A stretch of 64,000 bases of DNA from Candidatus Poribacteria bacterium (GCA_965205075.1 OZ242036.1:4928800-4992799); one strand, 5' to 3'. Positions 1,424 to 59,830 are shown, counted from the stretch's first letter. Notes: generated from the letters alone by a model not told the origin. Made by a program: numbers and translations.

Positions 1424-2602
1424 ATGGACTTACCACTTCACGTTTTAATCATTAGCTCACTCATCAAAATTGTTGTCGTCGTTCATCTGCTGCTCATCGG
1501 TGTCATGGCGATGATTCTTGCCGAGCGGAAAGTGAGCGGATGGATTCAAGATCGACACGGTCCCAACCGTGTTGGCCCTTGGGGTATTCTGCAGCCGATC
1601 GCCGACGGCGTAAAATTTCTGCTGAAAGAGGACCTCGTTCCAGACCATGTGGATAAACCGATCTATCTACTCGCACCCGCGATTATTTTAGTACCTGCAC
1701 TAGTTACCTGCGGGGTTGTGCCCTTTGGTAGTTCAATAACAATCTCAGGCTATGAGATTCCTCTGCAAATCGCTGATATTAATATCGGGGTTCTGTATAT
1801 TCTGGCAATCACCTCGTTGGGAGTCTATGGCGTCGTGCTTGGCGCATGGGCATCGAACAACAAGTACTCGCTGCTCGGTGGCTTGCGCTCTTCCGCACAG
1901 ATGATTAGCTACGAATTGACACTAGGGCTTTCGCTTATCGGCGTTCTGATGCTTTCAAGTTCGTTAAGCCTCCGAGAAATCGCAATCCAACAAGGAAGTT
2001 ATCCTTGGACTTGGAATTTCCTTATCCATTTCCCCGCTTTTTTAGCCTTTACCACCGCTGCCTTTGCGGAGACCAATCGTCTCCCCTTCGATCTCGCCGA
2101 AGCGGAACAGGAACTTGTCGGCGGATACCATACAGAATATAGCAGCATGAAGTTCGCTATGTATTTCATGGCGGAATATATGCACATGATTGTCGGCTCG
2201 GCGGTAGCTGTCACCCTTTTCTTGGGTGGTTGGCATTTCTTCGGGCTAGAAACGCTTGGTGGTCCTTTTTGGAGTGGTGTGATTTCATTCGGAATCTTCT
2301 TCACCAAAACAGCATTTTTCCTCTTTGTCTTTATCTGGGTGAGATGGACACTACCTCGATTCCGGTATGACCAACTTATGAATCTTGGCTGGAAATTTCT
2401 ACTACCCATTGCGCTCACAACAATCGTTGTAACAGGGACAGTTTGGGCGTTCACACAATCGAAACTCCTTGTGGGCATATTAAATGTCGTCGCCGCTGCC
2501 ATCGTTGTTGCAATCGTAGCAACTACATTGGTGATGAAGCGGGAACTTGAGCCGGTTGATGATAGAGGTGTTCTGAGCTTTACCGAAAAGTCTTCATCTT
2601 AA
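1424..2602 (+). CDS. nuoH: NADH-quinone oxidoreductase subunit H
   Basis: RBS GGGAGAGA is present. Polytopic membrane protein with typical NuoH/ND1 sequence (QDRHGPNRVGPWGILQPIADGVKF, ETNRLPFDLAEAEQELVGGY); it carries an extra C-terminal TM extension. Confidence 0.9.
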   Translation: MDLPLHVLIISSLIKIVVVVHLLLIGVMAMILAERKVSGWIQDRHGPNRVGPWGILQPIADGVKFLLKEDLVPDHVDKPIYLLAPAIILVPALVTCGVVPFGSSITISGYEIPLQIADINIGVLYILAITSLGVYGVVLGAWASNNKYSLLGGLRSSAQMISYELTLGLSLIGVLMLSSSLSLREIAIQQGSYPWTWNFLIHFPAFLAFTTAAFAETNRLPFDLAEAEQELVGGYHTEYSSMKFAMYFMAEYMHMIVGSAVAVTLFLGGWHFFGLETLGGPFWSGVISFGIFFTKTAFFLFVFIWVRWTLPRFRYDQLMNLGWKFLLPIALTTIVVTGTVWAFTQSKLLVGILNVVAAAIVVAIVATTLVMKRELEPVDDRGVLSFTEKSSS

Positions 2603-2647
2603 TAACTACCGCAGGCTATAACAAGCCTCTGATTTACAAGGATACGC

Positions 2648-3349
2648 ATGGCTGAACAGATTCTGTTTATTATCTTTGGGGTACTAGCCGTTGGTTCTGC
2701 GATATGCGTCATCGCATTTAGGAATCCGATTCACAGTGCGCTGGCATTGGTCCTGACCTTCTTCTCATTGGCAGGGTTGTTTATCTCGTTGGGAGCGTAC
2801 TTTGTTGCCGCTGTGCAGGTGATTGTCTATGCCGGCGCAATTATGGTGCTGTTCCTGTTTGTGATTATGTTGCTCAATTTAGGAAGGCTTCAAACAACAC
2901 GCCAAATCAACAAAGCAAAAGTGTTCGCTGTCATTGTGGGGATTCTGCTCGCAGCGGAGGCAATTTACATCGGAATCAAAGCGTATGATGGCACTGCCGT
3001 TGCGCCTTCTCAGGGCGGGAATGAAGTGGTTGGTGCAGCGATTACTTCGGAACAACTGGACAAGATTACGGAAATTGCATCCACCTATCAACTTGACCGT
3101 GCAGAAATCAATAGCACCTACGTGCCAAACATTGCTGAACAAAAGAACACTGTAGAAACACTCACCGTAGGTGAAGCGAATCAACTCATCGCAAAACTTC
3201 AGGGAGAAATGGGCAAACCCGACCGGATTGGCACGATACTATTTACGAAGTTCTTATTACCTTTTGAGGTAACATCGCTTGTACTGCTTGCAGCTTTAAT
3301 CGGCGTCATCGTGCTTGTTAAACGTGAGGATCCAGACACGGCTGCTTAA
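2648..3349 (+). CDS. nuoJ: NADH-quinone oxidoreductase subunit J
   Basis: NuoJ/ND6-like N-terminus (AVGSAICVIAFRNPIHSALALVLTFFSLAGLF), with a long hydrophilic insert and C-terminal TM. Confidence 0.8.
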   Translation: MAEQILFIIFGVLAVGSAICVIAFRNPIHSALALVLTFFSLAGLFISLGAYFVAAVQVIVYAGAIMVLFLFVIMLLNLGRLQTTRQINKAKVFAVIVGILLAAEAIYIGIKAYDGTAVAPSQGGNEVVGAAITSEQLDKITEIASTYQLDRAEINSTYVPNIAEQKNTVETLTVGEANQLIAKLQGEMGKPDRIGTILFTKFLLPFEVTSLVLLAALIGVIVLVKREDPDTAA

Positions 3350-3370
3350 TTGTAAACTAGGGGTTGAAAC

Positions 3371-3670
3371 ATGGCTTTGCAATACTATCTTATTTTAAGT
3401 GCGCTGCTCTTTACTATCGGAGTGATTGGTGTGCTCATCCGAAGAAATGCAATCATCATCTTCATGTGCATCGAACTGATGCTCAACGCAGCAAATCTCG
3501 CTTTCGTCGCAATCGGTCGAGAGTTAGGGGATGCTTCAGGGCAGATTTTTGTGTTCTTCGTCATGACCGTCGCTGCCGCCGAAGTTGCCATCGGACTCGC
3601 GATTATCGTGAGTGTTTTCAGACACCGTGAAACAATTAACATCGATGAGATCAACTCGATGAAGGGATAG
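3371..3670 (+). CDS. nuoK: NADH-quinone oxidoreductase subunit K
   Basis: 99-aa 3-TM protein with the canonical NuoK/ND4L sequence ([31 protein letters not shown]). Confidence 0.9.
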
Positions 3671-6280: not shown

Positions 6281-7819
6281 TTGCTACTTTCCGCAGTTAT
6301 CTTTTTACCACTACTCGGCGTAATTTTAATTGCTCTTGCCAGGCACATCTTAGGCGCGTCAGGGCTTAAATGGATCGCCCTAATCGTCACACTGCTCACC
6401 TTTGCCGTGTCGATATCGCTCTATACCGGTTTCGACGCAAGTACGCATGAGATGCAGTTTAAGGAGGAGCGAGCTTGGATTGAAGGGCTTGGTATAAGCT
6501 ACCACCTCGGCATTGACGGTATCTCGCTCTGGTTAGTTCTGCTGACCACTTTTATGACGCCGATTTGTGTGCTAGCAGCATGGAATTCGATAGAAAAGGG
6601 TGCCAGCGGATTCATGATTTCCTTGCTCATGCTCGAAACGGCGATGCTCGGCGTGTTTTGTGCGTTAGACCTCTTCCTCTTTTTTGTGTTTTGGGAGGCG
6701 ATGCTCATCCCGATGTATTTACTCATCGGTATCTGGGGTGGACATCGGCGCATCTACGCGACCATTAAGTTTGTCCTGTACACAATGGCGGGCAGCGCGT
6801 TGATGCTCGTTGGGATTTTGTACCTCTATTTCCAAAATGATAATAGTTTCAACCTGATGACCTTGTACGGCAGATCACTATCGCATCAGAACCTACTGTT
6901 CTTGGCGTTTTTCATCGCTTTTGCCATCAAAGTACCACTTTTCCCCTTCCACACTTGGCTGCCTGACGCACACGTTGAAGCACCGACAGTTGGAAGTGTT
7001 ATTCTTGCTGGCGTATTGCTCAAAATGGGAACATACGGCATCGTCCGCTTCTGTATGCCACTTTTCCCGGAGGGTGTCGCAGCGTATACGCCATTGATTG
7101 TAACGCTGTCTGTAATTGGTATAATTTACGGCGCATTGGTCGCAATGGTGCAACCAGACCTAAAAAAATTGGTTGCCTATTCAAGTGTGAGTCATTTGGG
7201 GTTTGTTGTGCTTGGACTTTTCGCTCTCAACCATCACGGCGTGCAGGGCGGTATTCTTCAAATGATTAATCACGGGTTAAGCACCGGCGCACTTTTCTTG
7301 CTCGTTGGGATGATTTATGAACGCCGGCATACCCGTATGATTGCTGACTTCGGTGGATTGTCAAAACAGATGCCGATCTTCGCCGTATTTTTTATGATTG
7401 TGACGCTTTCATCAATTGGGTTACCCGGTTTGAACGGATTTGTCGGGGAGTTTATGATTTTGCTCGGCGGCTTCATGTCCGATTCATTCTCTAAAGTTTA
7501 CGCTATTATCGCTGCAACCGGTGTTATTTTGGCAGCGGTGTATATGCTCTGGATGTTCCAGCGCGTCATGTTTGGCAAACTCGATAACCCAAAAAATCAA
7601 ACCTTGACCGATTTGAGCTTGCGAGAAATCGTTGTACTGGTTCCAATAGTAGTGTTCATCATTTGGATTGGCGTTTACCCCAAACCGTTTCTGAACCGAA
7701 TGGAAAAATCAGTCAGTCAAGTATTACAACAGAGCAGATCTACGGCAGCGGTAGAGGCAGCTGCTCCCGCAATTGCATTAGACACCACAACAAAAGAGGC
7801 AAAAAAGATTGACGAATAA
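6281..7819 (+). CDS. nuoM: NADH-quinone oxidoreductase subunit M
   Basis: TTG start is 6 nt after a GGAGG RBS. Antiporter-like subunit motifs are present ([31 protein letters not shown]). Confidence 0.9.
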
Positions 7820-9557
7820 ACACCTATTTTTCCCCTTGGCACTTCTCGGTGTCATTGGACTTATTCTCTTACCGACAATTGGTTTTGCAGCGGCAGCCGC
7901 AGGTGGAGATGGACACGATGACCACGCCGGCCATCACGGCGTCGACGGAGCGAAGTTACCTCTCTGGAGCATCATTCCGTTTGTTGGAATGCTCCTCTCC
8001 ATTGCAATTGTCCCACTGATTAACTTCCATTTCTGGGAACATCACTACGGGAAGTTCTCGTTAGCGTGGATTGTCATTCTCTCTATCCCCTTCCTTATCG
8101 CCTACAAAGGTGATGGTTGGTACGAAATCGTCCATATTGTCCTGCTCGATTATGTCCCCTTCATTATTCTATTGGCCGCACTATTCACATGTGCGGGTGG
8201 AATCTGTCTGAAAGGTTCGCTGCGCGGTTCGCCTGTCGTAAATACCATACTGATCGCCATAGGAACCGCTTTGGCAAGTTGGATGGGAACGACGGGGGCG
8301 GCAATGCTGCTGATTCGTCCAATACTCCGGGCTAACGAATGGCGTAAGCATCGTGTTCATGTTGTTGTCTTTTTTATATTTCTTGTAGCCAATATCGGTG
8401 GCTCACTGACACCGTTGGGCGATCCGCCGCTGTTTCTCGGATTCCTCAAAGGAATTGATTTCTTCTGGACAATGGCACTGCTCCCTGCGATGATACCGGT
8501 GGTAATTTTACTGCTGATCATATTCTTCATTTTCGACACAGTCATGTTCAAGAAAGAAGGAACGCCGCCGGACGATGGGGAAAAAGAACCACTCCGTCTC
8601 CAAGGTGTTTGGAATTTTGTGCTAATTGCCGGTATCATCGGTGCGATCCTGTGGTCCAAATCACTCGCTGATGGTCCTTTCAAGGATCATTCAGTCGCGC
8701 AAAAAATGGCACCACAAATCAAAGCCGCAGAAGAAAAAATGGACGCAACGAAGGCAAAACTCGAAGCGTATGTCAAGAAACATAAAAACAACGCGACGAT
8801 AAATTTCGACAAATCCAATCACGAATACTATGAATTGCGAAAAAACGACCTCCACGCCGTGGCTAAAGTCAATAGTTTGCGTGCCCAAAAGACACATGAT
8901 GAAAATCGCGGTATTTCAATCTTCGGTGTAACTGTACCATACTTTAATTTGATGCGCGATGGTTTACTGCTCTTGATTGCCTTCATCAGTCTGTTGTACA
9001 CACCAATGTATAAAACCGTGAAAGATGAGCACGGACATAATCAGCCTGAACCGAGTCAGTTGGAGACAAATGTCCGGGCAGCAAACGGTTTTACGTGGGA
9101 GCCAATCCTAGAGGTTGCCAAACTGTTTATCGGTATTTTTATCTGTATGATTCCAGCTTTGAAAATTTTGCAGGCGGGCATTGATGGAAGCCTTAGCAGT
9201 GTTGTGCTTGCCGTTCAGACGCCAACGAACGATCCGGTCAATGCGATGTATTTTTGGCTGACAGGTGTGCTCTCAAGTTTCTTGGATAACGCTCCGACTT
9301 ACGTCGTCTTCTTCAACACAGCGGGTGGAGATCCAACCTCGCTCATGGGTCCGATGGCGCAGACGCTCTTGGCAATCAGTTGTGGCGCAGTGTTTATGGG
9401 GGCTAATACCTATATCGGCAATGCACCAAACTTTATGGTCAAAGCAATTGCTGAGGAAAACGGCGTGAGGATGCCAAGTTTCTTCGGATACATGCTTTGG
9501 TCAGTGGTAATTTTGGTTCCCGTGTTTGTGATTGTAACGTTCGTGTTCTTTGTGTAA
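7809..9557 (+). CDS. ArsB/NhaD-superfamily (ion-transporter superfamily) permease embedded in the nuo operon
   Basis: Polytopic membrane protein of about 12 TM. C-terminal motifs ([23 protein letters not shown]) are typical of NhaD/ArsB/CitMHS-type permeases. N-terminus is His/Asp-rich ([16 protein letters not shown]). Central hydrophilic coiled-coil insert of about 85 aa. Start assignment (TTG overlapping the nuoM stop) is uncertain. Confidence 0.55.
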
Positions 9558-45860: not shown

Positions 45861-46736
45861 ATGGCAGAATTCGATATTGTTTCCAAACAACTTGTTAAAA
45901 ATTATCCCGCAGATTTCGTTCGATTCACTTTTGAACAGGAGGGCATCGAAGTTCTAGAAGTCATTGATACCGAGCAACCCACCGTCGAATCCCGATTAAT
46001 GGATAGCCTTATACGGGTACAAATCCATGGTGAGGAAGCATTGGTGCATACCGAATTTCAAACGGGGGACAGCACGAACCCGTCAATGCCACGCCGAATG
46101 GCAGGATATATTGGTCGAGCGATTGAAACCTACGGACTTCCCATCTACTCCAACGTTATCTACCTTCGTCCGGATGCCGGACAAAGAGATGCGGGACAAT
46201 ATGTGCAGGAGAGGGGTGGGTATCGTATCGTTATTCAATACAAGGTCATAAGATTGATCGAAATTGAAGGACAAGCGGTTATTGAGCAAGAGCTCTGGGG
46301 ACTGCTTCCCTTCGCACCACTCATGAAACCACCTCAAGGAATGGTTGGTGCACAGTGGTTGCGGCGATGTATTCAAACCGCAGACACTTTGCCTTTGGAC
46401 AGCACAAACAGATCAAATTTTTTTACAGACATCGCTATCCTCAGTGGGTTAATTCACGATTCTCAAACCATTACCACTATTATTTCGGAGGAAACCATGT
46501 ACGAATCATCTATTGTCCAACTCTTTACCGAAAGAGGACAAAGACAACAAGGTATCGAATATGTCCTTGACGTTTTGGCGATTCGATTTCATCCAAGTGA
46601 AACTGAAGCCCTAAAGCCGGCCATTGAGACGATCGAAGATTTGCAACTCCTCAAGCAGTTGCACCGGTCAGCTATGCAGGCACCAAATCTTGATGAATTC
46701 AAACGGACTCTAACTTCAATGACCAACGGGCAATAA
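45861..46736 (+). CDS. Rpn-family recombination-promoting nuclease/putative transposase (PD-(D/E)xK with DUF4351-like C-terminus)
   Basis: 291 aa; N-terminal AEFDIVSKQL...ADFVRF and a central D/E-x-K-like core resemble YhgA/Rpn-type proteins. Assignment is by pattern memory only. Confidence 0.45.
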   Translation: MAEFDIVSKQLVKNYPADFVRFTFEQEGIEVLEVIDTEQPTVESRLMDSLIRVQIHGEEALVHTEFQTGDSTNPSMPRRMAGYIGRAIETYGLPIYSNVIYLRPDAGQRDAGQYVQERGGYRIVIQYKVIRLIEIEGQAVIEQELWGLLPFAPLMKPPQGMVGAQWLRRCIQTADTLPLDSTNRSNFFTDIAILSGLIHDSQTITTIISEETMYESSIVQLFTERGQRQQGIEYVLDVLAIRFHPSETEALKPAIETIEDLQLLKQLHRSAMQAPNLDEFKRTLTSMTNGQ

Positions 46737-46748
46737 GAGGGAATACAC

Positions 46749-48848
46749 ATGACTTTCAGGTATCGTCTGGGAGTAGACATCGGGGGGACATTCACCGATG
46801 CAACCCTGATCAACGAAGAAACGGGTGAGATCCGCGTCGGCAAAGTGCCTTCGACACCCCAAGACCCATCACAGGGTTTCATGGAGGCAACCCACCGCAT
46901 ATTACGCGAGGCTGGCGTGTCGCCGGATGAGGTCGGCTATGTCGTTCACGGGACAACGGTAGCAACCAACTCGATCATTGAAGGCAAGGTTGCCCGCACA
47001 GGCTTCATTACAACCGACGGCTTTCGCGATCTGTTAGAGATCCAGCGACAGATTCGACCATCGCTCTACGATTTACACTTTGAAAAGCCGCGTCCTTTGA
47101 CGCCTCGTTACCTATGTTTCGGTGTACCTGAGCGATTGGACGCCCAAGGGAATGTGCTCACGCCGCTTGATGAGTCCGCAGTCAGGAATGCAGCAGCGCA
47201 ACTTCGCCGAGAGGACGTGGAATCAATCGCTGTCTGCTTCCTTCACGCCTACATCAATCCGAGCCATGAGAAACGGACGGGCGAGATTCTACGTGAAATT
47301 CTCCCCGACACGATTATCTCCCTTTCATCAGAGGTCGCACCGGAGTTTCGGGAGTATTTCCGGGCGAGTACGACAGTCATCAACGCTTCCATTAGACCCG
47401 TCGTCGGACGTTATCTCCAGAGCATTGAGGTGCGGCTGCGAGCGGAAGGATTAGCGGCGGAACTGCTTGTGATGCAGAGCAGCGGTGGGGTTTTCACATT
47501 TGAAGCAGCGAGCGAAAAACCGGTCTTCATGGTGGAATCGGGGCCCGCAGCGGGTGTCATTGCTGCGACCTATCTCGGCACGACGCTAGGATGTCCGGAC
47601 GTCATCTCCTTCGACATGGGCGGAACCACAGCGAAGGCGGGACTTATTCAGAACGGCACACCAACGATAACCAAAGACTATGAGGTAGGGACGGCGGCGC
47701 AAACCGGCGTGGGTGCCTCCCGCGGCGCAGGCTATCCCATCCGTACTCCCGTCATCGACCTTGTAGAGATTGGTGCCGGCGGCGGCTCGATCGCTTGGGT
47801 GGACTCCGGTGGGGTGCTGCGAGTCGGACCGCAGAGCGCGGGTGCGGATCCAGGTCCGGTGTGTTATGGAACGGGCGGCACTGAACCGACCATCACCGAT
47901 GCCAATTTGGTGTTGGGACGACTCAACCCCAGCTTTTTCTTAGGCGGTGAGATTGAATTAGACGTTGAGGCAGCGCGTCAGGCGATCCAAGAGAAGTGCG
48001 CGGATCCGTTGAATCTTGACCTTGTGGAAGCCGCTCACGGTATCGTGGAGATTGCCAACGCTGCGATGGTCAATGCCTTACGCCTTGTCTCCGTCCAGCG
48101 CGGTTACGACCCCAGAGACTTCGTACTAACAGCGTTTGGCGGTGCGGGTCCGGTACACGCCAACCGTTTGGCAGCAGAGATTGATGTACCCACCACGATT
48201 ATCCCCATGAGCCCCGGCACAACCTCAGCCATGGGTTTGTTGGTAACAGACCTAAAGCACGACTACTCCACAACCCTCATCCAACACATCGACCAACTGG
48301 ACACAGCGGCGGTGGAGGAGACCTACCGAGAGTTGGAGGCGCAGGGAGGTGCAAGTCTGGAGCGGGAGGGTGTGCGTCCAGAGGACATCAGTTTCCTCCG
48401 GCAGGTAGATACGCGCTACGTCGGACAAAGCTACGAGTTGACAGTGCCGTTACCGGCAGAGCAGCTAGACGCTTCAAAGATTGACCGTGTGCTTGAGCAG
48501 TTTCATATCGAGCATGACCGTGCCTACGGCTATAGCGCGCCCACAGAGCCGGTCGAGTTCGTAAACCTACGACTCACCGCAATCGGCAAAATCGCCAAAC
48601 CCCGCCTACGCGAACTGGAAGCGGACAACACAGACATCGCTGCAGCGCAGAAAGCGGTCCGATCCGTCTACTTTGCTGAAAGTGACGGCTACGTTGAATG
48701 TCCCATCTATGACCGTTATCTTCTGGGTCCCGGCTGCGTCTTGACAGGACCGGCAATCGTTGAGGAGATCGATTCCACCACCGTCATCCACCCCGGCTAC
48801 AGTGCACAGGTTGACAGGTTCGGCAACCTGATCTTGACCCGAATTTAA
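46749..48848 (+). CDS. hydantoinase/oxoprolinase A-family protein (HyuA-like)
   Basis: N-terminal LGVDIGGTFTDA, a second ATPase-fold motif (DMGGTTAK) and 699 aa. No hyuB-like gene follows. Confidence 0.85.
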   Translation: MTFRYRLGVDIGGTFTDATLINEETGEIRVGKVPSTPQDPSQGFMEATHRILREAGVSPDEVGYVVHGTTVATNSIIEGKVARTGFITTDGFRDLLEIQRQIRPSLYDLHFEKPRPLTPRYLCFGVPERLDAQGNVLTPLDESAVRNAAAQLRREDVESIAVCFLHAYINPSHEKRTGEILREILPDTIISLSSEVAPEFREYFRASTTVINASIRPVVGRYLQSIEVRLRAEGLAAELLVMQSSGGVFTFEAASEKPVFMVESGPAAGVIAATYLGTTLGCPDVISFDMGGTTAKAGLIQNGTPTITKDYEVGTAAQTGVGASRGAGYPIRTPVIDLVEIGAGGGSIAWVDSGGVLRVGPQSAGADPGPVCYGTGGTEPTITDANLVLGRLNPSFFLGGEIELDVEAARQAIQEKCADPLNLDLVEAAHGIVEIANAAMVNALRLVSVQRGYDPRDFVLTAFGGAGPVHANRLAAEIDVPTTIIPMSPGTTSAMGLLVTDLKHDYSTTLIQHIDQLDTAAVEETYRELEAQGGASLEREGVRPEDISFLRQVDTRYVGQSYELTVPLPAEQLDASKIDRVLEQFHIEHDRAYGYSAPTEPVEFVNLRLTAIGKIAKPRLRELEADNTDIAAAQKAVRSVYFAESDGYVECPIYDRYLLGPGCVLTGPAIVEEIDSTTVIHPGYSAQVDRFGNLILTRI

Positions 48849-48912
48849 TCCTTGGTGAATTAGAGAAATAAGTAGACATTTACCAACAACTCCGACCTTC
48901 ACGAAGTTGCCA

Positions 48913-48941
48913 AAGTCCCCCTGATAAGGGGGATTTAGGGG
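48913..48941. repeat. dispersed 29-bp palindromic repeat, copy B (inverted)
   Basis: AGTCCCCCTGATAAGGGGGATTTAGGGGG. Confidence 0.8.
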
Positions 48942-49698
48942 GTTGGTTGTGTATCGAAAGTGTATAAGTAATTGAGGGGGGTGCATCATTATTGTCTGAA
49001 TCAGGATTTAAGGATTCTCAGGATAGAAACCGGAACGTGAAACGGGACTATTTTAGGACGGGACAGGGTGCATTTAGCCCCAGCGGGGCGACATGTGCCA
49101 TTTGTCTGAATCGCAGATTGCACGGATGATTGCACCGATTTCATCGGGAGGATTAGCATCTAAGATCGCGCATGGAGGCTAGTTCCGATGTCGTTCCGAG
49201 CATCCTGATGAATCGGGAGAAGCCTATCCCACACGAAAGTGGTTTATGCACACCCCTCAAGTAATTATAGAATTCACCATACTAAAAACTTCTTTAGGAC
49301 TAAATCCCGAACTCCAATAGATCGGGGTTAAGCAAAGCATTTTGTGGTATAATTTATTGGTCTTTCGTAGCGGATTTTAACTGCGTCTACCTGCGTAACA
49401 CCAATTTTGAAAACTGCCAAGATTGGGAACAAAAGTATTAGGGACTTTATAAAAAACTTGAAACTTTCCACCAAGTTCTTTGTGTTACCGATTGAAGCCT
49501 GTAATGCCAGCGATCAGAAAGAAAAAATGGGAAGATGAAAGTGTCTGATAAAATTCATTATCGGACATTATCGGGGTGTTTTGCGGGGGATGTGAAAATA
49601 AAGATCCAGTCATAGCAAGGGTTTTGAGAGTCTCAATAAGCCAAAAATATGTCCGATAACTGTAGCGGGCGTGATTTTGAGAGAAAGGAGAAGGGGTT

Positions 49699-50487
49699 AT
49701 GAACGAATCACCTTTGCCGAGATTGACTGTCAGCAGGGAAGAAGCAAAAGAGAAAATACGAGCACGAATAACGGAGGTACACCGATTAAGAGACGCATCG
49801 TATACTCACGAATACCGGTTGAGAGCATGTGAAAGGTGGTCGGAGTATAACGAGACTCTTTTAGTAAACTTGTTTGGCGGTAGTGCTGAATATAGCAATT
49901 ACAGGAGATTCACGGGGTTCAGAAGCGGAGCTCCCATTTCACCTAACGACTACAGGCGTAGAATAACAGACAGCATTGAGAGCTTGCTGGCGATCTGTGA
50001 ACGCCTTGAACTATACGACGAACCTTTACAACCTACAAACACGACGCAGCATCGTTTCGGCAATGATGTTTTTATCGTGCACGGACGGGATGATGGAGCT
50101 AAGGAGACTGTCGCTAGGTTTGTAGAGCATTTGGGCATAAAACCAATTATACTTCACGAACAAACCAGTAGAGGTGAAACGATTATTGAAAAAATTGAAA
50201 GGTGCTCAGATGATGCGGGGTTTGCTATTGTCTTAATTACACCCGATGATGTCGGAGGCTTAGAAGGTGAAGCAGCCGATGAACGGAATCCTAGACCCCG
50301 ACAAAATGTTGTTTTTGAACTCGGCTATTTTATGGGGAAACTGGGTCGTGAAAGAGTTTGTGCGCTTTTCAAAGGTGAAGTAGAAAATCCCTCAGATATC
50401 GATGGTATAGTCTATATCGACATGGACGCTCCTGGTGCATGGCGGGAGACACTACGCCGAGAAATGAAGGAGATAATCCAATGCTAA
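49699..50487 (+). CDS. defence-associated protein: unknown N-terminal helical domain plus C-terminal PF10137 TIR-like (CAP12-type) nucleotide-binding domain
   Basis: RBS AAGGAG is present. C-terminal VFIVHGRDDG...IIEKIE...FAIVLITPDDVGG...RPRQNVVFELGYFMGKLGRERVCALFKGEVENPSDIDGIVYI matches the bacterial TIR-like domain consensus. Confidence 0.6.
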   Translation: MNESPLPRLTVSREEAKEKIRARITEVHRLRDASYTHEYRLRACERWSEYNETLLVNLFGGSAEYSNYRRFTGFRSGAPISPNDYRRRITDSIESLLAICERLELYDEPLQPTNTTQHRFGNDVFIVHGRDDGAKETVARFVEHLGIKPIILHEQTSRGETIIEKIERCSDDAGFAIVLITPDDVGGLEGEAADERNPRPRQNVVFELGYFMGKLGRERVCALFKGEVENPSDIDGIVYIDMDAPGAWRETLRREMKEIIQC

Positions 50488-51878
50488 CCAAGGCGTTTAT
50501 CGAAGAGCGGAAATTAGCGAGGGATTCCCAATTTTTTACGAAGACCCTCGCACCAACAAATAGCGAGGGGGCTCTCCGGTTTGTTCTCGACAATCTTGGG
50601 AGGTTGCCACCAGATTTTGATCAAGAGCCCCTCTTAAAGCTGCTAAAACACGCACACCCGAATATTCGCCTGCTTGCCGTTAAGAATCTCGGTAAATTCA
50701 AGGATGCCGAGTTGCTTGATGCGATCTCCAAATTCGCGAATAGCGAAGCGAATACTGCCACCCGTCGTGAAGCGGTCTCGACGATTGGACGGATGCGAAC
50801 ACCGAAAGCAATCCCGATCCTTATCCAATTTCTAAAGGACATTGACCCAAAAGTTGTCTTACAAGCGATTCGCGGACTCATCAACTTTAAGATGATCCCC
50901 GAGGTTCAATCTGCACTCGTAGCCTTGGAGAGCCATCCGAATGAATTGATTCAAGATGTTGTAGGGCGGGAACTGACCTCGAAAACTGAATCCCAACAAG
51001 AGAAGCCACTCGCACATCCCCAAAGCTTAGATGCCCTCAAAAACGTCATTGTCCATGCTGATGTCCGAGACGTATTGGGTGCCGTACCTGATGAATCCAT
51101 CCACCTGACCTTCACTTCGCCACCATACTACAATGCCCGCGATTACACACTCTACGAAAGCTACGCGGCATATCTACAATTCCTCGCTGATATTTTTAGA
51201 GAGGTGCACCGTATTACAAAGGAGGGGCGATTTTTTGTCCTCAATACCTCCCCGGTTATCGTTCCACGTATGAGCCGCGCTCACTCCAGTAAGCGATACG
51301 CCATTCCCTTCGACATCCATCCGATGTTGACGCAGATTGGATGGGAGTTCATTGAGGATATTGTCTGGGTAAAGCCGGAACGAACTGCCAAAAACCGGAA
51401 CGGTGGGTTTTTCCAACATCGCAAACCGCTCGGATACAAGGCAAACTCCGTCTCAGAATATGTAATGGTCTACCGTAAGAAAACGGATAAGCTAATTGAT
51501 TGGAATATGCGCCAATATGACGAGGAGACGGTTGAGGGGAGCTTGGTCAAGGGAGACTACGAGAAAACAAACGTGTGGCACATCCATCCTGCAAGCGACA
51601 AGGTCCATCCAGCAATCTTCCCAACCGATTTGGCAACACGGGTTATTCAATTTTACTCCTTCAAAAAGGATATAGTGTTTGACCCGTTTGGAGGCATTGG
51701 AACAGTGGGTGTCGCAGCCCTCATGTTAGAGCGTTTTTTTCTTCTCGCTGAACAGGAAGAGAAATATGTCGAGAAGGCGATGCAGGCTGTTGATGGTTCA
51801 CTGTTTAACACCATCAGTCCCAGATGTTTTAACTTGGCTGAATTCAGAGCGACACTCAACAAAGAAGAAGAACGATGA
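50481..51878 (+). CDS. DNA methyltransferase (beta-class N6A/N4C, SPPY motif) with N-terminal PBS-lyase HEAT-like repeats
   Basis: Motif IV LTFTSPPYYNARDY precedes motif I VFDPFGGIGTVG, the beta-group order. HEAT repeats lie at about residues 60-170 (HPNIRLLAVKNLG...RREAVSTIG...PKVVLQAIRGL). ATG 50481 overlaps the upstream stop (ATGCTAA). Confidence 0.8.
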   Translation: MLTKAFIEERKLARDSQFFTKTLAPTNSEGALRFVLDNLGRLPPDFDQEPLLKLLKHAHPNIRLLAVKNLGKFKDAELLDAISKFANSEANTATRREAVSTIGRMRTPKAIPILIQFLKDIDPKVVLQAIRGLINFKMIPEVQSALVALESHPNELIQDVVGRELTSKTESQQEKPLAHPQSLDALKNVIVHADVRDVLGAVPDESIHLTFTSPPYYNARDYTLYESYAAYLQFLADIFREVHRITKEGRFFVLNTSPVIVPRMSRAHSSKRYAIPFDIHPMLTQIGWEFIEDIVWVKPERTAKNRNGGFFQHRKPLGYKANSVSEYVMVYRKKTDKLIDWNMRQYDEETVEGSLVKGDYEKTNVWHIHPASDKVHPAIFPTDLATRVIQFYSFKKDIVFDPFGGIGTVGVAALMLERFFLLAEQEEKYVEKAMQAVDGSLFNTISPRCFNLAEFRATLNKEEER

Positions 51879-52867
51879 CTATCACCGGTGTTGTAATAAA
51901 GAATATCATACGTAAATTGTTGGCAGGCGAGGATTACCGCGCTGAGATCGTCGCGCTCATTGATGCAGAATTTTTGCAATATGTCATCGAATTTTTTGGT
52001 CGCGTTGTTGATGCAAAGTTGAAAGATAGACCTGTAACAATTGATTGGTACAAAGAAGAATTTCTCAATCCAGAGCTTCAATCGTCGGATATCGCTGTAC
52101 ATTCAGGCTTGAACATGAAAACGATCTCGAATATGTATAACTCCTCACGGAAAGAAGTTGTACTTGAAGCATCTAGAGATCATTATGATGTCTTACTTAA
52201 TGCGATTCAGGATTTGACGGAGCAAAGCGATGTCGATGTCGCCTTGACAATAAAATTTCGGACGGTCAGTGTTGATCTCAATATTAACGAAAGTTTGATT
52301 GTTATTAATACGCTTGCTGTCAAACGCGCCGCGTTGCGAGGTGGATTGTGGAGTACAGCAGGAAAGCAGGTTGAGAAACCGTTGATGACAACCCTTTGTG
52401 CCCTATTCCGTGTTCCACTGAGGTATTTTAATCAATCTGTTCTTCCTATTTCAACAAATGAAGTGGAACGTGAAGCGGATTTCTATCTGGTCGATAACGC
52501 TGGATTGAGGCACCGTTGCGAAGTGAAACTGATGGGCAGAGGGAATCCAGAAAGTGCGGATGCCGTACATGCCCGTAGCAGCCAAGTTTTTGTTGCGGAT
52601 AAACTCTCGGACCTGAATAAAGCACAACTCGACGATTCAGACATCTATTGGGTGGAACTACGAGATGAAAACGGCTACAAACGGTTTGAGCAGGTTTTAA
52701 CGGCGTTATCAATTCCTTGTCAGTCCTTTGAAGGTGATATACAGGCAGCGTTAGATGAAATCTTTCCAGTTATACTTTCCGACGATGTTCAATCTTCATC
52801 GACCCCTGGCGTTATTCTTCAAGAGCGAGATGGTAATGATTCACAGCTGCTCGTGGACTTTGAATAA
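51875..52867 (+). CDS. putative restriction endonuclease (PD-(D/E)xK nuclease) cognate to the upstream methyltransferase
   Basis: ATGA start/stop overlap with the methylase gene. Candidate catalytic motif EADFYLVD-x9-EVK (D-x9-E-x-K). Confidence 0.4.
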   Translation: MTITGVVIKNIIRKLLAGEDYRAEIVALIDAEFLQYVIEFFGRVVDAKLKDRPVTIDWYKEEFLNPELQSSDIAVHSGLNMKTISNMYNSSRKEVVLEASRDHYDVLLNAIQDLTEQSDVDVALTIKFRTVSVDLNINESLIVINTLAVKRAALRGGLWSTAGKQVEKPLMTTLCALFRVPLRYFNQSVLPISTNEVEREADFYLVDNAGLRHRCEVKLMGRGNPESADAVHARSSQVFVADKLSDLNKAQLDDSDIYWVELRDENGYKRFEQVLTALSIPCQSFEGDIQAALDEIFPVILSDDVQSSSTPGVILQERDGNDSQLLVDFE

Positions 52868-53003
52868 AATAAAGTGGACGGGGACGGTAGAGAAGTCGCG
52901 GGCGAGGTTGAATTGATAATTAACGAGGATGGGACTTATGCAATGAAATGTTCACGAGGCAAGAAGCAAAACTTTGTGATTAACTTGTGCGGGAGATGTT
53001 AAA

Positions 53004-53858
53004 ATGCCAGAACCAACAACTACTGTAGGGCTAGCGGCTCTAGTTGCCTATCTAAGCAAAGATGGTGTTGCAAAAATACTCGGTCCAACCGCCGAGTACC
53101 TCGGAGACGAACTCAAAGCGTTTACACAAAAGCGAGTTGAAAAAGTGGGTAAGATATTCTCAAACGCGGAGAAGAAGTTGGGTGATAAACTCGATTTTCC
53201 CGGTCAAGTCCCGCCCAAAGTTCTCAAAACAATAATTAATGAGGGGTCGTATTCTGATGATGCCGTTGCTGTAGAATATTTTGGCGGTGTCTTAGCATCA
53301 TCGAGGACCGAGGTGGGTCGAGATGATAGAGGAGCCCGATTGGCAAAGATGATCGACAACATGTCAGCATACCAACTACGATCCCACTATCTTATCTATT
53401 CCACCATATCAGAACTATTTTCTAATAGCGGAAATAGCTTTGACACGTATGGAAACGGGGGAAAAATGCAGCTATTCATGTCTTATCAAGATTATGCTAA
53501 CGCTATGGAATTTACACAACAAGAATGGGCTAATCATCAGATATTAAGCCATATCTTTCATGGACTCAGTACAGATGGACTCATACAAGATAGTTCGACA
53601 TTCGGAAGCCAAGAGGTCCTTGAGACAAATTTTGTCGGGGTTCCTAGCGATGGGATTATATGCGCTCCTACCACACTCGGGGTGGAATTGTTTCTGTGGG
53701 CTTTTGGGCATGGCGATAAAGAACTTAACTTCTTGCTCACAGACGATTTTTCTTCAGAGATTGAAGGAATCCCCAAATCGGTTCCCAACGCTGTACCGAT
53801 TCAAAGGAAAAATTTCCAGGTTATTGGTTTCACGCCGGAAGACGGAAGTAAAGGTTAA
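53004..53858 (+). CDS. Abi-alpha (DUF4393) abortive-infection-like protein
   Basis: N-terminal VAKILGPTAEYLGDELKAFTQKRVEKVGKIF matches the conserved Abi-alpha N-terminal helix motif. Confidence 0.5.
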   Translation: MPEPTTTVGLAALVAYLSKDGVAKILGPTAEYLGDELKAFTQKRVEKVGKIFSNAEKKLGDKLDFPGQVPPKVLKTIINEGSYSDDAVAVEYFGGVLASSRTEVGRDDRGARLAKMIDNMSAYQLRSHYLIYSTISELFSNSGNSFDTYGNGGKMQLFMSYQDYANAMEFTQQEWANHQILSHIFHGLSTDGLIQDSSTFGSQEVLETNFVGVPSDGIICAPTTLGVELFLWAFGHGDKELNFLLTDDFSSEIEGIPKSVPNAVPIQRKNFQVIGFTPEDGSKG

Positions 53859-54201
53859 TTATGCGGTGCGGATTTCAACTTTGAAATAGCTTTTTATGAC
53901 AGGAGAAGCAAGTGTTAGAAACGACGCCATTGATACCGGACTTAATGCCAGAAAGCACAGTGACCGATAAAGGCTTTCAAAGTGTCCTAGAAGTTTCTCG
54001 AACCCCACATCGGATTATTGAGGGGTTGCCGGCGAGGTTGAACCAGTTAAAGAAGGAATCTGATAATATTTGATCGGAATATAAAATTTTCTAAAACATT
54101 ACGGCAGGCTTTTGTTATTGATGAGCGCATAAAGTGGACCCCTTGTCGAGGCCAAAATACTGGAAAAATAAGTAAGATAATTGAGAGTTACCGACACTGA
54201 T

Positions 54202-54411
54202 TTAGCCGAGATAGACCTCAGCCGGTGTAGCACAATTGAGACTCTGATGAGGTCGTTTGTGATTATAGAACCGGATATAATGAGTTAATCCATCGAACAG
54301 CCCTTGTGCGGTTGGGTACAGTTTCTGGTAAACATCTTCATATTTGACCGACCGCCAAAATCGCTCAATGTAAATGTTGTCAATGGCTCGACCCACGCTG
54401 TCCATACTCAT
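54202..54411 (-). pseudogene. IS3-family transposase (integrase-core C-terminus) remnant
   Basis: DNIYIERFWRSVKYE...YNHKRPHQSLNCATPAEVY is the conserved end of the rve domain of IS3 OrfB. Only 69 codons are intact. Confidence 0.7.
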
Positions 54412-54624
54412 AGCAATACCAGCCGCTTCAACCTCTACAAGAGTGTTCGTTCAACATAGAAAAATTGGTTGACAAAGTTAATGAGAGGTTTATCAGAGAG
54501 GCAAACGAGGTGTTACGTTTTAGGGAAGATATTTAGAGAATCAACGATTCCTGTTGTGCGGGTGGCTACATGCGACGCAAAAATCTGATGGCTATACGAT
54601 CTACACATAAGATGGAGGACTAAA

Positions 54625-55275
54625 ATGTTGAGAGTTGTTTTTCTGATAATGATTGCGATAACGTTTCTTTCGTGCGACTATCTAACCGATGACACTGAGA
54701 CTGAAGCTGATACATTCCCCGTTGGTCCGACACTTGATTGCAGCAAGCTGTTACAAGATCGTGGAAATTGGGAGCTACTAGCAACGCTGAAGCGTGATGT
54801 GAGACAAGATTTCTGGCATGAGTTCTATTTGGAGCCGAACACAGAAGCGTTAATCCTACAAACTCTCCTTGATGGCAAAGAGTTTTTGTTTCTGATAGAA
54901 CACCCCGATAAGAGCTTCTCTCGCCCTGTCCAGTTCTACTTCGCCCAACCGGAGGGCTTGGCCACTTATACGGATGCAAAGGGCTTCACACGCGCGGATC
55001 ATGTCGATCTTTATTACCCGTCCCCTCCGACGTGGTACACGCATTGGGGACCTGAAACAAACGCCATTGGTGGACAGATAAGACGTGAGCAGTCTGGCTT
55101 CGTGGCTAATTTTTTTGCTGGCTTTCCCGGTGCGAAGTTTCAACACGAGGACAATAGGGATAAAGCTTTTGTCGGTGGTTCTGTTGAGTTCCGTGCAACT
55201 CGTGAGGCAGGGATTGATACGGCTTACAAACCGCACATTAAACAGGGCTTCGTGCTAAAGATATTTGCGCGTTGA
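54625..55275 (+). CDS. hypothetical lipoprotein
   Basis: Signal peptide with lipobox LSC; 216 aa with no motif. Confidence 0.4.
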   Translation: MLRVVFLIMIAITFLSCDYLTDDTETEADTFPVGPTLDCSKLLQDRGNWELLATLKRDVRQDFWHEFYLEPNTEALILQTLLDGKEFLFLIEHPDKSFSRPVQFYFAQPEGLATYTDAKGFTRADHVDLYYPSPPTWYTHWGPETNAIGGQIRREQSGFVANFFAGFPGAKFQHEDNRDKAFVGGSVEFRATREAGIDTAYKPHIKQGFVLKIFAR

Positions 55276-55447
55276 CCAATGGATAGTCACTTGAGCAGCT
55301 TCTACCGAACAGGACGGTGAACAACCGCAAGGCACAATCTTTCCAGTCGGTTTGTGTGACCAAGAACTCCAGCCCTTGTCGAGGGGCATAACCGAGTTAT
55401 TTTGTTACATTATAAGGAAGTTGCCATTATTCAAAAAAGGACTGAAA

Positions 55448-55696
55448 ATGAAGCCTACGAAACTGATAATCAATCGACAGAAACCGGCAGCGAATTACAA
55501 GTATCGTGGGAAGTTGCCGGAGGAGCCGACGATTTCTATCCATCGGGGGGGGGGTGAGATAGATTGTGCTTACGCGGTCAAGTTGTCGGGCGATTGGATC
55601 TTACAACAGAACTATGATGTGAGTCCGTGCGGAGGGGCACATATCTGGTTAGAAGAATCCCTGTGCCCAAGTCAAACAAATGTACTGGAAGGATAA
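55448..55696 (+). CDS. hypothetical small protein
   Basis: ATG inside track ORF 55352..55696; about 83 aa, basic N-terminus and Cys/His-containing C-terminus. Confidence 0.25.
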   Translation: MKPTKLIINRQKPAANYKYRGKLPEEPTISIHRGGGEIDCAYAVKLSGDWILQQNYDVSPCGGAHIWLEESLCPSQTNVLEG

Positions 55697-55842
55697 ATGG
55701 AAGCCTTGATTTGTTTGTCTGTTTGTCGTGATGTCATCCATTTGGACATACTACACGACCAAGAATCGGGGACGGCGAAACCAGAATGATATAGAAATAC
55801 TAAAAGCCTACATCTACACACTCAAAAAGGACGTGCTTAATC

Positions 55843-57234
55843 ATGCAAGTTTATAGATTCAGAACAATGGATAATCTATTAGGAGAACACCAAGAGCTAA
55901 AAAAGCAGGAAATTTATTTCGCCAGCCCTGAACAACTGAATGACCCTATGGAAGGTCTCCGAGACATTTTCTGGAGAGGGGATAAAATTGTCTGGGAGAA
56001 TTTTTTTAAGCATTACGCTTTTTGTCTGTATACAATCCATTTACACTTTCTCGTAGCTGGTCATTCTATACAATTAAATGCGAATAATATCCCAATTCTG
56101 GGGAGATGGGATGAACTGCCCTCCCCAGCACAAAGGTTGTTTAATGAGGTTTGGCAGAGGTTTCTCGATCTGCCTGAAATGCCAGAGTTTATCGAAGCGC
56201 TAGAGGACACAAATAGGAAAATAAGAGACAGAGAACTCGGGCTATACCTCGGACTTATCCATTCTGCCTTGTTCTGCGAAATAGAGGAAATATGCTTTGC
56301 AAATGGGCTCATGGCCCAACCCACAACACGCCGTCCACCTGAGCCCCCTGTTGGAGAAAGATTAGCATCTACTCTTAAAGCAATGGCACAGATTGAAGAC
56401 GACGAAAAGAAAGTTGACGATCTGTTTCAAACTTTTGATTCTGTGAAGTACGCAGGGAAGCTTGAGTTGCTATCGAACAATGTGATTCTCACAGGAATAT
56501 CAGGGGGAAATTTCCTGCTAGTGCATTTTGATTTTCCCAGTGTATATTTGAAGGAGATTGAGAAGCTGCTTTGGTGGGACTGGCGCGCCGCCTGTTTTAC
56601 GGAGAATTACCATAACTCAGCCGTATGGAGTACCTATGGAGACAATCACAAAGGGGCATGCTTGATTTTTGAATCCACACAAATAGATGGGGCACGTCAA
56701 TACCGCGCAGTAAGTGGGTTACATAAGGTTGACTATGGACCTAAGTTGAACGAAGTTGATTTCTTTAGGTCTATTGGCAGAGCAACAGTGGGGCAGCTGA
56801 AAGAACTGTGGTACACCGATGCAGAGGGCAATTTTTCTGAATACGGAGACCATATACCGCGTGATGGAGAGAGAGAGAATGATGATACAGTTTGTTGGCG
56901 AAAAAGTTATTGGGATAACTTTTACCGTGACATTACATCTAAAACCAAGGATTGGGAATATGAACAGGAATGGCGTCTAATCCTAGAGGAAAGATGGTTG
57001 GATGAGGGAGACCCCCCCAAACTAATCTACGACTTCAATTCGTTGAAGGGAATTATTTTTGGAATTCGGGCATCCGACGAAGAGATATTAAAAGCTGTCA
57101 AAATCATTCAAGAAAAGTGCGAGGAACATGAGCGGACTGATTTTAAATTTTATAAAGCATACTACTCCCCAAAGACCGGGGAGGTTCGCAAGAATGAGAT
57201 ACGGTTGCCGAGAGCATTACAAAACGTCCGATAA
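55843..57234 (+). CDS. DUF2971-family protein (defence-island associated)
   Basis: Family signatures VYRFRT...IYFASPEQLNDPMEG, SAVWSTYGDNHKGACLIFE and EQEWRLILE. Confidence 0.6.
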   Translation: MQVYRFRTMDNLLGEHQELKKQEIYFASPEQLNDPMEGLRDIFWRGDKIVWENFFKHYAFCLYTIHLHFLVAGHSIQLNANNIPILGRWDELPSPAQRLFNEVWQRFLDLPEMPEFIEALEDTNRKIRDRELGLYLGLIHSALFCEIEEICFANGLMAQPTTRRPPEPPVGERLASTLKAMAQIEDDEKKVDDLFQTFDSVKYAGKLELLSNNVILTGISGGNFLLVHFDFPSVYLKEIEKLLWWDWRAACFTENYHNSAVWSTYGDNHKGACLIFESTQIDGARQYRAVSGLHKVDYGPKLNEVDFFRSIGRATVGQLKELWYTDAEGNFSEYGDHIPRDGERENDDTVCWRKSYWDNFYRDITSKTKDWEYEQEWRLILEERWLDEGDPPKLIYDFNSLKGIIFGIRASDEEILKAVKIIQEKCEEHERTDFKFYKAYYSPKTGEVRKNEIRLPRALQNVR

Positions 57235-59654: not shown

Positions 59655-59830
59655 CCGGTGCGGTTGGAAACCGCACCTACTGTTCTCCCATTTGGTAGGC
59701 GCTGTTTCTAACTGCGCCCGTTCAACCCACGCGCCTATGTGGTCCGGTTGGAAACCGCACCTACTGTTCTCCCATTTGGTAGGCGCTGTTTCTAACTGCG
59801 CCCGTTCAACCCACGCGCCTAATGCCGTAA
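59655..59830. repeat. two tandem copies of an 84-bp hairpin-rich unit
   Basis: GGTTGGAAACCGCACCTACTGTTCTCCCATTTGGTAGGCGCTGTTTCTAACTGCGCCCGTTCAACCCACGCGCCT occurs at 59662 and 59746, preceded by the 35-nt motif at 59623-59657. It generates the artefactual minus-strand ORF 59637..59849. Confidence 0.8.

Follow-up and report, generated by a model that had tools for sequence, protein, structure and literature searches.

Defence genes embedded in restriction-modification (R-M) loci have already been described. The PDCs are 145 candidates collected from BREX, DISARM and Type I R-M loci by guilt-by-embedding; in the same work six new embedded systems from Hma loci were active when cloned, the embedded genes tested worked alone, and the reasons discussed for embedding are hitch-hiking, co-regulation and a PrrC-type back-up (Payne et al., bioRxiv 10.1101/2024.01.29.577857). 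The present analysis concerns three genes on the plus strand (positions 49699-52867) of a 64,000-nucleotide stretch of DNA from Candidatus Poribacteria bacterium (GCA_965205075.1 OZ242036.1:4928800-4992799), called here the window. Gene 1 encodes a TIR protein of the candidate family PDC-S35, and genes 2 and 3 encode a Type II R-M pair of the CfrBI type. The best explanation of the data is that two defence modules lie head to tail in a recombination-prone low-GC island, and not one three-part machine. A probability of about 0.58 is given to the reading in which the TIR effector and the R-M pair are autonomous, co-transferred and probably co-transcribed. Since embedded defence genes are published and the families are known, the window is a further example of a known phenomenon. 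An earlier reading of the sequence (the first-pass annotation) had proposed an undescribed defence system in which an R-M pair is tied to a TIR-like protein. The recurrent link between the gene 1 family and R-M stands; the novelty does not, defence genes inside R-M loci being on record (10.1101/2024.01.29.577857). The claim is thus corrected: there is no new three-protein system, but a catalogued TIR candidate and, in the same defence hotspot, a CfrBI-type R-M pair of wide occurrence.

The closest characterised analogue of gene 1 is SpbK (Bacillus subtilis ICEBs1), a single-gene abortive-infection effector. In SpbK, a four-helix bundle (residues 1-94) is joined by a linker of 18 residues to a TIR NADase (residues 113-266); the N-domain binds a phage portal, the TIR domains then cluster and NAD+ is hydrolysed (PMC12847820). 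Gene 1 has the same layout, i.e., helical bundle, linker and TIR. On the contrary, no sequence match to SpbK is obtained in a PDB profile search, SpbK is not among the top Foldseek hits, and the TIR of gene 1 belongs to the Cap12/Pycsar subfamily, unlike that of SpbK. Cap12 (TIR-STING, CBASS) and PycTIR (Pycsar) have the TIR subfamily PF10137 in common with gene 1 (best matches 9lmq, 7un8 and 8jsj), and the NVVFE(L/F)G glutamate motif is conserved between them and gene 1. However, gene 1 lacks a STING, SAVED or cyclic-nucleotide-binding domain, and the NCBIfam Cap12 model gives 39.8 bits for a cut-off of 450 bits. No cyclase family was found in the seven open reading frames (ORFs) of the island that were scanned. 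Membership of CBASS or Pycsar thus fails, because there is neither a cyclase in these ORFs nor a nucleotide-sensing domain. Thoeris is rejected as well, no ThsA-like partner being present. Stand-alone TIRs were excluded from the systematic TIR preprint.

Two other systems must be compared. PrrC, in the Type Ic system EcoprrI, is an abortive-infection effector inside or beside an R-M operon and in the same orientation, like gene 1. As an ABC-ATPase/anticodon nuclease, PrrC occurs almost only in Type I loci and is kept inactive by its R-M system, whereas gene 1 encodes a TIR protein, is found with many R-M types and often has no adjacent methyltransferase of the PF01555 type. CfrBI of Citrobacter freundii shares the endonuclease family PF09516 with gene 3, and both are two-gene Type II systems. 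The CfrBI genes are divergent with a shared promoter (10.64898/2025.12.04.692298). In contrast, genes 2 and 3 are co-directional, the methyltransferase gene coming first and overlapping the endonuclease gene by ATGA, and gene 2 has a HEAT domain of about 180 amino acids in addition to the part covered by the best PADLOC methyltransferase model.

Gene 1 (49699-50487, plus strand, 262 amino acids) was assigned to PDC-S35 with Pfam, PADLOC, AlphaFold and Foldseek. Residues 124-243 match PF10137 (CAP12/Pycsar TIR) with an E-value of 5.5e-42 and 143 bits (Pfam cut-off 24.7 bits). The PADLOC model PDLC05005 (PDC-S35) matches residues 20-259 of 262 (7.8e-70) and four more PDC-S35 models also match (1.6e-68 to 5.1e-42), i.e., five in all. 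The AlphaFold model (pLDDT 77.5) contains a helical N-domain (helices 13-32, 37-58 and 82-105), a disordered linker (about 106-120) and a TIR domain (about 121-262). The top Foldseek matches are TIR-STING/Cap12 structures (9lmq, 7un8), with E-values down to 2.4e-07, and other TIR domains come after; it must be noted that the whole-model search is informative for the TIR domain only. In the profile alignment, RQNVVFELGYFMG of gene 1 is aligned to RDNVVFEFGLFLG of Cap12. E207 of gene 1 is invariant among the 29 homologs aligned and is placed opposite the Glu of the Cap12 NVVFEFG motif, which we take to be the catalytic residue. The TIR fold of gene 1 is genuine and of the Cap12/Pycsar class, E207 being the predicted catalytic residue. 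The N-domain belongs to no Pfam family and gives only generic helical-bundle matches, and no DNA-binding domain was detected in gene 1. The C-terminal TIR-like domain and the uncharacterised helical N-domain had both been recognised correctly in the first-pass annotation. The family comprises at least 7,898 matches. Gene 1 is a full-length member of this catalogued single-gene candidate and nothing sets it apart from its family.

The three genes are all under purifying selection, the ratio of non-synonymous to synonymous substitution rates (dN/dS) ranging from 0.09 to 0.38, i.e., 0.10-0.38 for gene 1, 0.10-0.14 for gene 2 and 0.09-0.30 for gene 3.

The profile of the gene 1 N-domain recovers 1,838 representatives. 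Among the best 148 matches, about half carry a TIR of the PF10137 type and many others are short sequences; about 20 of these 148 have a different C-terminal region. The alternative C-termini scanned are TIR_2, HEPN-like Hypoth_Ymh, a DpnII-MboI-type nuclease domain, GGDEF and a weak PLD-like match, and the nuclease and HEPN-like fusions also match PADLOC effector models. Being joined to such varied effector domains marks the N-domain as a putative sensor or adaptor placed ahead of interchangeable toxic effectors. By analogy with SpbK and TIR-STING, the N-domain would serve for sensing or clustering: once a phage-derived trigger is bound, the TIR domains would gather, the E207 active site would form, and NAD+ would be hydrolysed, aborting the infection. 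A SpbK-like model, i.e., a sensor bundle plus a TIR NADase with a swappable N-domain, would make PDC-S35 easier to study.

Gene 2 (50481-51878, plus strand, 465 amino acids) encodes a Type II beta-class DNA methyltransferase with N-terminal HEAT repeats. Residues 207-434 match PF01555 (1.2e-37). The HEAT-repeat domain spans about residues 36-170, with HEAT_2 (1.6e-18, best stretch 49-133) and HEAT_PBS repeats. The PADLOC MTase_II match has an E-value of 8e-81 and leaves the HEAT domain outside. Among the 20 homologs aligned, the invariant positions include the whole of motif IV SPPY (213-216), six of the eight residues of DPFGGIGT (401-408), which contains motif I (FGGIGT, 403-408), and many HEAT residues. 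The relatives in the PDB are alphaRep/PBS-type HEAT repeats on the one hand and beta-class N4C/N6A methyltransferases on the other. Motif SPPY suggests that gene 2 probably makes N4-methylcytosine. A GGAG ribosome-binding site, conserved in the related locus L081 (labels of the type L001-L258 denote related loci or contigs compared with the window), precedes the ATG at 50481. A longer ORF from 50439 was rejected, and the start set at 50481, because the relatives begin at the methionine of MLTKAF behind GGAG. The domains and motifs claimed for gene 2 were thus recovered. The first-pass annotation considered this architecture abnormal. Taken generally it is indeed unusual, yet in the large gene 2 family it is the standard form: HEAT and methyltransferase occur together in 119 of the 120 best homologs (63-100% identity, mostly about 465 amino acids, some annotated as Candidatus Poribacteria), the exception being a 344-amino-acid sequence. 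No description of the HEAT-methyltransferase fusion was found in the literature. It appears to be a large, conserved and apparently undescribed architecture that is worth a look.

Gene 3 (51875-52867, plus strand, 330 amino acids) encodes a Type II restriction endonuclease of the CfrBI family. It matches PF09516 (RE_CfrBI) with 8e-25 and 88 bits (cut-off 25 bits) and PADLOC REase_II over its full length (2e-96). The first-pass annotation had left the family unrecognised, which is wrong. It had also proposed a PD-(D/E)xK nuclease with a D-x9-E-x-K spacing; the nuclease stands and the spacing does not, the motif being D202-x13-E216-V-K218, at least 97% conserved in 65 sequences. No match to gene 3 was obtained by tblastn against plasmids.

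Genes 2 and 3 are a self-contained and widespread Type II R-M module. A gene 3 homolog lies directly 3' of the gene 2 homolog in 75 of 80 metagenomic loci, in which the gene 2 relatives have 53-65% identity, and a gene 1 homolog is found in none of these 80 loci. Moreover, the closest relatives of gene 2 (91-92% protein identity; L256/257 and L258) lie at the orthologous locus of the window, between hydantoinase and MFS transporter genes, where the same R-M pair (about 90-92% DNA identity) is present without gene 1. The module is self-contained on these three grounds, i.e., pairing, lack of gene 1 in the survey and orthologous loci without it. The pair would mark host DNA and cut unmodified incoming DNA, gene 3 being presumably coupled in translation to gene 2. 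CCWWGG is not avoided in the window (44 observed, 50 expected), thus the specificity may differ from that of CfrBI; no palindrome is consistently avoided across the host loci of this R-M pair. Apart from this, TTCGAA is absent from the window (0 observed, 16 expected under a Markov model) and also from L081-083 and L086, which suggests that a TTCGAA-specific R-M system exists somewhere in the lineage. It must also be noted that the products of genes 2 and 3 share one protein cluster at 90% identity (121 members), which may reflect fused ORFs in some assemblies or a clustering artefact; the gene 1 cluster has 2 members.

The three plus-strand ORFs and their two overlaps are exactly as first claimed: ATGCTAA joins genes 1 and 2 (gene 2 ATG 50481-50483, gene 1 TAA 50485-50487) and ATGA joins genes 2 and 3 (51875-51878). 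Four-base start/stop overlaps are common in operons. No terminator-like site was found between the three genes in the scan. From the overlaps it had been argued that the three genes form a single functional unit. This argument fails at the gene 1/gene 2 junction. In the relatives that contain the same three genes, i.e., L081-083 (gene 1 95% identical) and L171 (69%), there is a spacer of 64 nt between genes 1 and 2. Compared with L081/L083, the window has a specific 83-bp deletion that removed the last 11 or so codons of gene 1, its stop and most of the spacer up to the ribosome-binding site of gene 2. The ATGCTAA overlap is thus the product of a local deletion and not of a conserved design.

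The junction also separates two blocks that differ in evolutionary distance. A recombination/deletion junction was placed at 50465-50467, based on the deletion and on a shift of identity. DNA identity to L081 is 93% in the gene 1 block and 79% in genes 2-3, the switch being exactly at 50465/50467. The synonymous divergence (dS) from L081 is 0.16 for gene 1, 0.84 for gene 2 and 0.67 for gene 3. Similarity to loci with other cargo (L172-176, L084-L090) stops in the range 50442-50467, in most cases at 50465-50467. In the best reading, the window is a recombinant whose gene 1 block is like that of L081/L172 and whose R-M block is like that of L256. Gene 1 and the R-M pair have separate histories, because of (i) the step of identity and dS at the junction, (ii) the overlap made by deletion and (iii) a gene 1 similarity that is not congruent with the R-M type. 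As to this last point, gene 1 is 89% identical between L084 and L175, where the cargo differs, and 65% identical between L085 and L087, where the cargo is the same.

These data bear on an obligate three-component machine, in which no protein would work without the others. The genes are co-oriented and overlapping in the window, and the triad recurs in L081-083 and L171. But no gene 1 homolog was met in the 80 loci of genes 2 and 3 and, conversely, no gene 2 or gene 3 homolog was met beside gene 1 homologs in the 80 best loci of a distant survey, each from a different GTDB species. The orthologous loci that lack gene 1, the gene 1 relatives with other R-M types or none, the overlap due to deletion and the different evolutionary distances of the two blocks point in the same direction. 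The three genes are not hard-wired to one another: the idea of a conserved three-gene system was rejected, and the obligate machine, largely refuted by the comparative data, is hardly tenable.

A role of gene 1 as regulator or timer is very improbable too. Gene 1 would then be a leader gene setting the ratio of methyltransferase to endonuclease rather than an immune effector, in line with the methyltransferase genes that consistently follow it after a short gap or with an overlap, and with the lack of a terminator-like site mentioned above. Against this, gene 1 has no detected DNA-binding domain, its TIR fold and catalytic Glu are conserved under purifying selection, its N-domain is fused elsewhere to other toxic effector domains, and the R-M pair is stable without it.

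The preferred reading, that of two biochemically autonomous modules, would then be as follows. Co-transcription of gene 1 with the R-M pair is probable, and the two would move together. The two layers would act in succession, restriction first and NAD+ depletion as a fall-back; a NAD-depleting abortive-infection layer beside restriction is a reasonable reading. The adjacency would come from the habit of PDC-S35 to settle at or inside R-M operons, the R-M cassettes being swapped by recombination just 3' of gene 1. This habit is striking: family members lead, or sit inside, R-M operons of several types, with the start of an ancestral methyltransferase gene remaining behind. The origin of the PDC set from genes embedded in BREX, DISARM and Type I R-M loci fits the R-M linkage of gene 1.

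Several observations weigh against full autonomy. Firstly, no experiment on a PDC-S35 member was found in the literature searched, and the family is mentioned neither in main texts nor in the supplements of the PDC source paper. Secondly, the native C-terminal residues of gene 1 (about 11) are replaced in the window by MKEIIQC. Thirdly, the linkage to R-M is tight among close relatives of gene 1 (60-95% identity), of which 11 arrangements were compared. An intact cassette containing a methyltransferase begins at most 65 nt downstream of gene 1 in 7 of the 11, and a decayed one lies 3' of gene 1 in L084, L086 and L089; L090 is the sole arrangement with neither cassette nor remnant of one. Ten close relatives were compared for the sequence 3' of the stop, and in all ten remains of a methyltransferase 5' end are found there (MNKIYFGDNLEIL...; MNKIYFGDNLEILRE...), 10-15 codons long in the better-preserved copies and mutated or shortened in some. 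Only L175/176 have this 5' end intact, and there it shares 8 nt with the gene 1 stop (ATGAATAA). Fourthly, Type III mod-res operons contain or adjoin at least 11 of the 80 distant homologs, usually with a PF01555 mod gene as direct neighbour. The gene 1 clade is thus linked to methyltransferase or R-M genes more tightly than co-occurrence in defence islands predicts, and this persistence could mean a functional or regulatory dependence.

The cassettes found downstream of close gene 1 relatives belong to at least four unrelated R-M types: (i) HEAT-methyltransferase and CfrBI-like endonuclease (window, L081-083, L171); (ii) BanI/DpnII-like endonuclease, N6_N4 methyltransferase and GmrSD (L085, L087); (iii) EcoRI-family methyltransferase and GmrSD_N-HNH nuclease (L172-174); (iv) N6_N4 methyltransferase fused to a Mrr-like nuclease domain (L175/176). 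The remains of the methyltransferase 5' end in the ten relatives imply a long-standing coupling, i.e., that this clade was coupled ancestrally to a methyltransferase, its cargo having been replaced repeatedly (at least four times). In the eight Type III-like loci examined further, a ResIII-type res gene lies downstream. The R-M-linked homologs tested score as PDC-S35 in PADLOC, three of them being embedded in Type III loci and three linked to Type II. In the literature searched, no description was found of the methyltransferase 5' remains, nor of a linkage of PDC-S35 to Type II cassettes or to Type III mod-res gaps. In five loci (L013, L018, L027, L041 and L065) the mod-res gap also holds PD-T4-4/PDC-M47-like ATPase pairs and PDC-S09 nucleotidyltransferases; the Type III gaps are therefore landing pads, like Type I, BREX and DISARM loci. 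Such unrelated defence genes beside the gene 1 homolog also speak for separate histories of gene 1 and the R-M genes.

In the distant survey, PF01555 is the commonest immediate-neighbour family of gene 1 homologs. The neighbours are diverse (108 Pfam families among 148 neighbours). An adjacent methyltransferase, counted for the PF01555 type only, was not found in 69 of the 80 GTDB species loci, nor in any of 79 relatives on viral contigs, which supports a gene 1 that is autonomous as a single-gene unit.

The persistent and directional linkage, the methyltransferase remains with their intact overlapping version and the placement between Type III mod and res genes in the same orientation, together with the precedent of PrrC inside EcoprrI, would suit a PrrC-like guard. 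Gene 1 would then be silent as long as the R-M system works and would fire NAD+ depletion when this system is inhibited or evaded, or when restriction products or unmodified DNA accumulate. However, PrrC is associated almost exclusively with one R-M type, whereas gene 1 and its relatives, once Type III is added to the four types above, occur with at least five unrelated partner sets, so that a specific protein contact of gene 1 with all of them is unlikely. Moreover, many family members have no adjacent methyltransferase of the PF01555 type, the same R-M pair exists at the same locus without gene 1, and the N-domain matches only generic helical bundles. A guard of this kind is thus unlikely, without being negligible. 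A related proposal, equally tentative, is that the PDC-S35 TIR is a dedicated R-M companion, a back-up of the PrrC kind acting by NAD+ depletion, whose N-domain would sense some generic effect of failed or overcome restriction or a cue linked to the methyltransferase. If true, it would explain why the translational coupling to a methyltransferase gene was kept through at least four cargo swaps and why distant family members are placed between mod and res.

The changed C-terminus raises the question of a decaying copy, i.e., a gene 1 inactivated in the window by the 83-bp deletion, the R-M pair alone being functional. The island contains other decayed elements, e.g., a remnant of an insertion sequence (IS). 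On the contrary, the ORF of gene 1 is intact and keeps all the invariant residues of the family, the last helix is still predicted by AlphaFold despite the new C-terminus, the length of the C-terminal tail varies across the family, and dN/dS relative to L081 is 0.10. Decay is thus improbable.

The modules lie in a low-GC variable island (48853-57220), delimited by the drop of GC, the syntenic flanks and the differing content. GC is 0.42-0.47 inside and mostly 0.50-0.59 in the flanks; the hydantoinase gene ends at 48848 on one side and an MFS transporter ORF begins at 57406 on the other. The flanks are syntenic with those of L256/257, L258, L172-174 and L086; L258 has PhyH-PhyH-hydantoinase on its left side, and L256/257 have hydantoinase on the left and, on the right, MFS transporter and AP endonuclease. 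Each genome has its own content between these flanks, and the interval from hydantoinase to MFS is a defence hotspot of variable content.

A conserved non-coding segment lies 5' of gene 1 (49280-49664, plus strand), with 85-87% identity to L172-174, no ORF of at least 60 amino acids and no Rfam match. It probably carries the promoter or leader of gene 1 and is a recurrent recombination joint. Partial copies of it are found on either side of the R-M cassette in L256/257 (L256 5798-5920 and 8498-8789). More widely delimited in L256, the R-M cassette lies between partial direct copies of window 49235-49570 (L256 5798-5920 and 8430-8789), and a 64-nt duplicate of the hydantoinase 3' end is found on its downstream side; these flanking copies suggest that the R-M cassette was inserted by recombination at that segment. 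No sigma-70 consensus was found on the plus strand upstream of gene 1, it being noted that Poribacteria promoters may differ from this consensus. The counts of the promoter/terminator scan are at or below the shuffled expectation and no promoter was assigned. The Rfam and tRNA scans of the island gave nothing, thus there is no tRNA integration site or known RNA element in the island, and the repeats inside it are short matches at chance level.

The rest of the island contains further features. An ORF of 284 amino acids (53004-53858, plus strand), outside the conserved module, has no match in Pfam, PADLOC or NCBIfam and none by tblastn in L001-L170. The remnant of an IS3-family transposase (54130-54433, minus strand; rve_3, 3.4e-14) shares about 89-90% of its DNA sequence with IS copies of L089 and L258; the IS of L258 is complete and follows directly on a truncated CfrBI-like endonuclease gene. 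A DUF2971 protein (55843-57234, plus strand; PF11185 5.9e-07, PADLOC PDC-S31 2e-23) is a candidate defence gene.

In the orthologous island of L086, an intact, 90%-identical CfrBI-like endonuclease gene (2521-3513) lies upstream of gene 1 and the HEAT-methyltransferase is reduced to a 33-codon remnant. Either the endonuclease is an orphan or the contig (coverage 3x) is mis-assembled. A TIR_2-TPR protein (6883-8184, 433 amino acids) is encoded at the right end of the same island, after the remnant of the HEAT-methyltransferase start. Outside the island of the window, between the second PhyH and the hydantoinase genes, there is an ORF of 291 amino acids (45861-46736) that matches no Pfam family; as L258, otherwise syntenic, lacks it, a further insertion is probable. 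Intergenic exact repeats of 26-29 nt, found in the window at 48853-48881, 59693-59718 and 59777-59802 and in L084 at 3119-3188, may be repetitive extragenic palindromic (REP)-like elements. Lastly, a 68-nt element (55652-55719) is 98.5% identical in L172 (5322-5389) and L173 (3686-3753), the surrounding cargo being different: in the window it is located at the 3' end of a 114-amino-acid ORF, and in L172 it closely follows the HNH gene.

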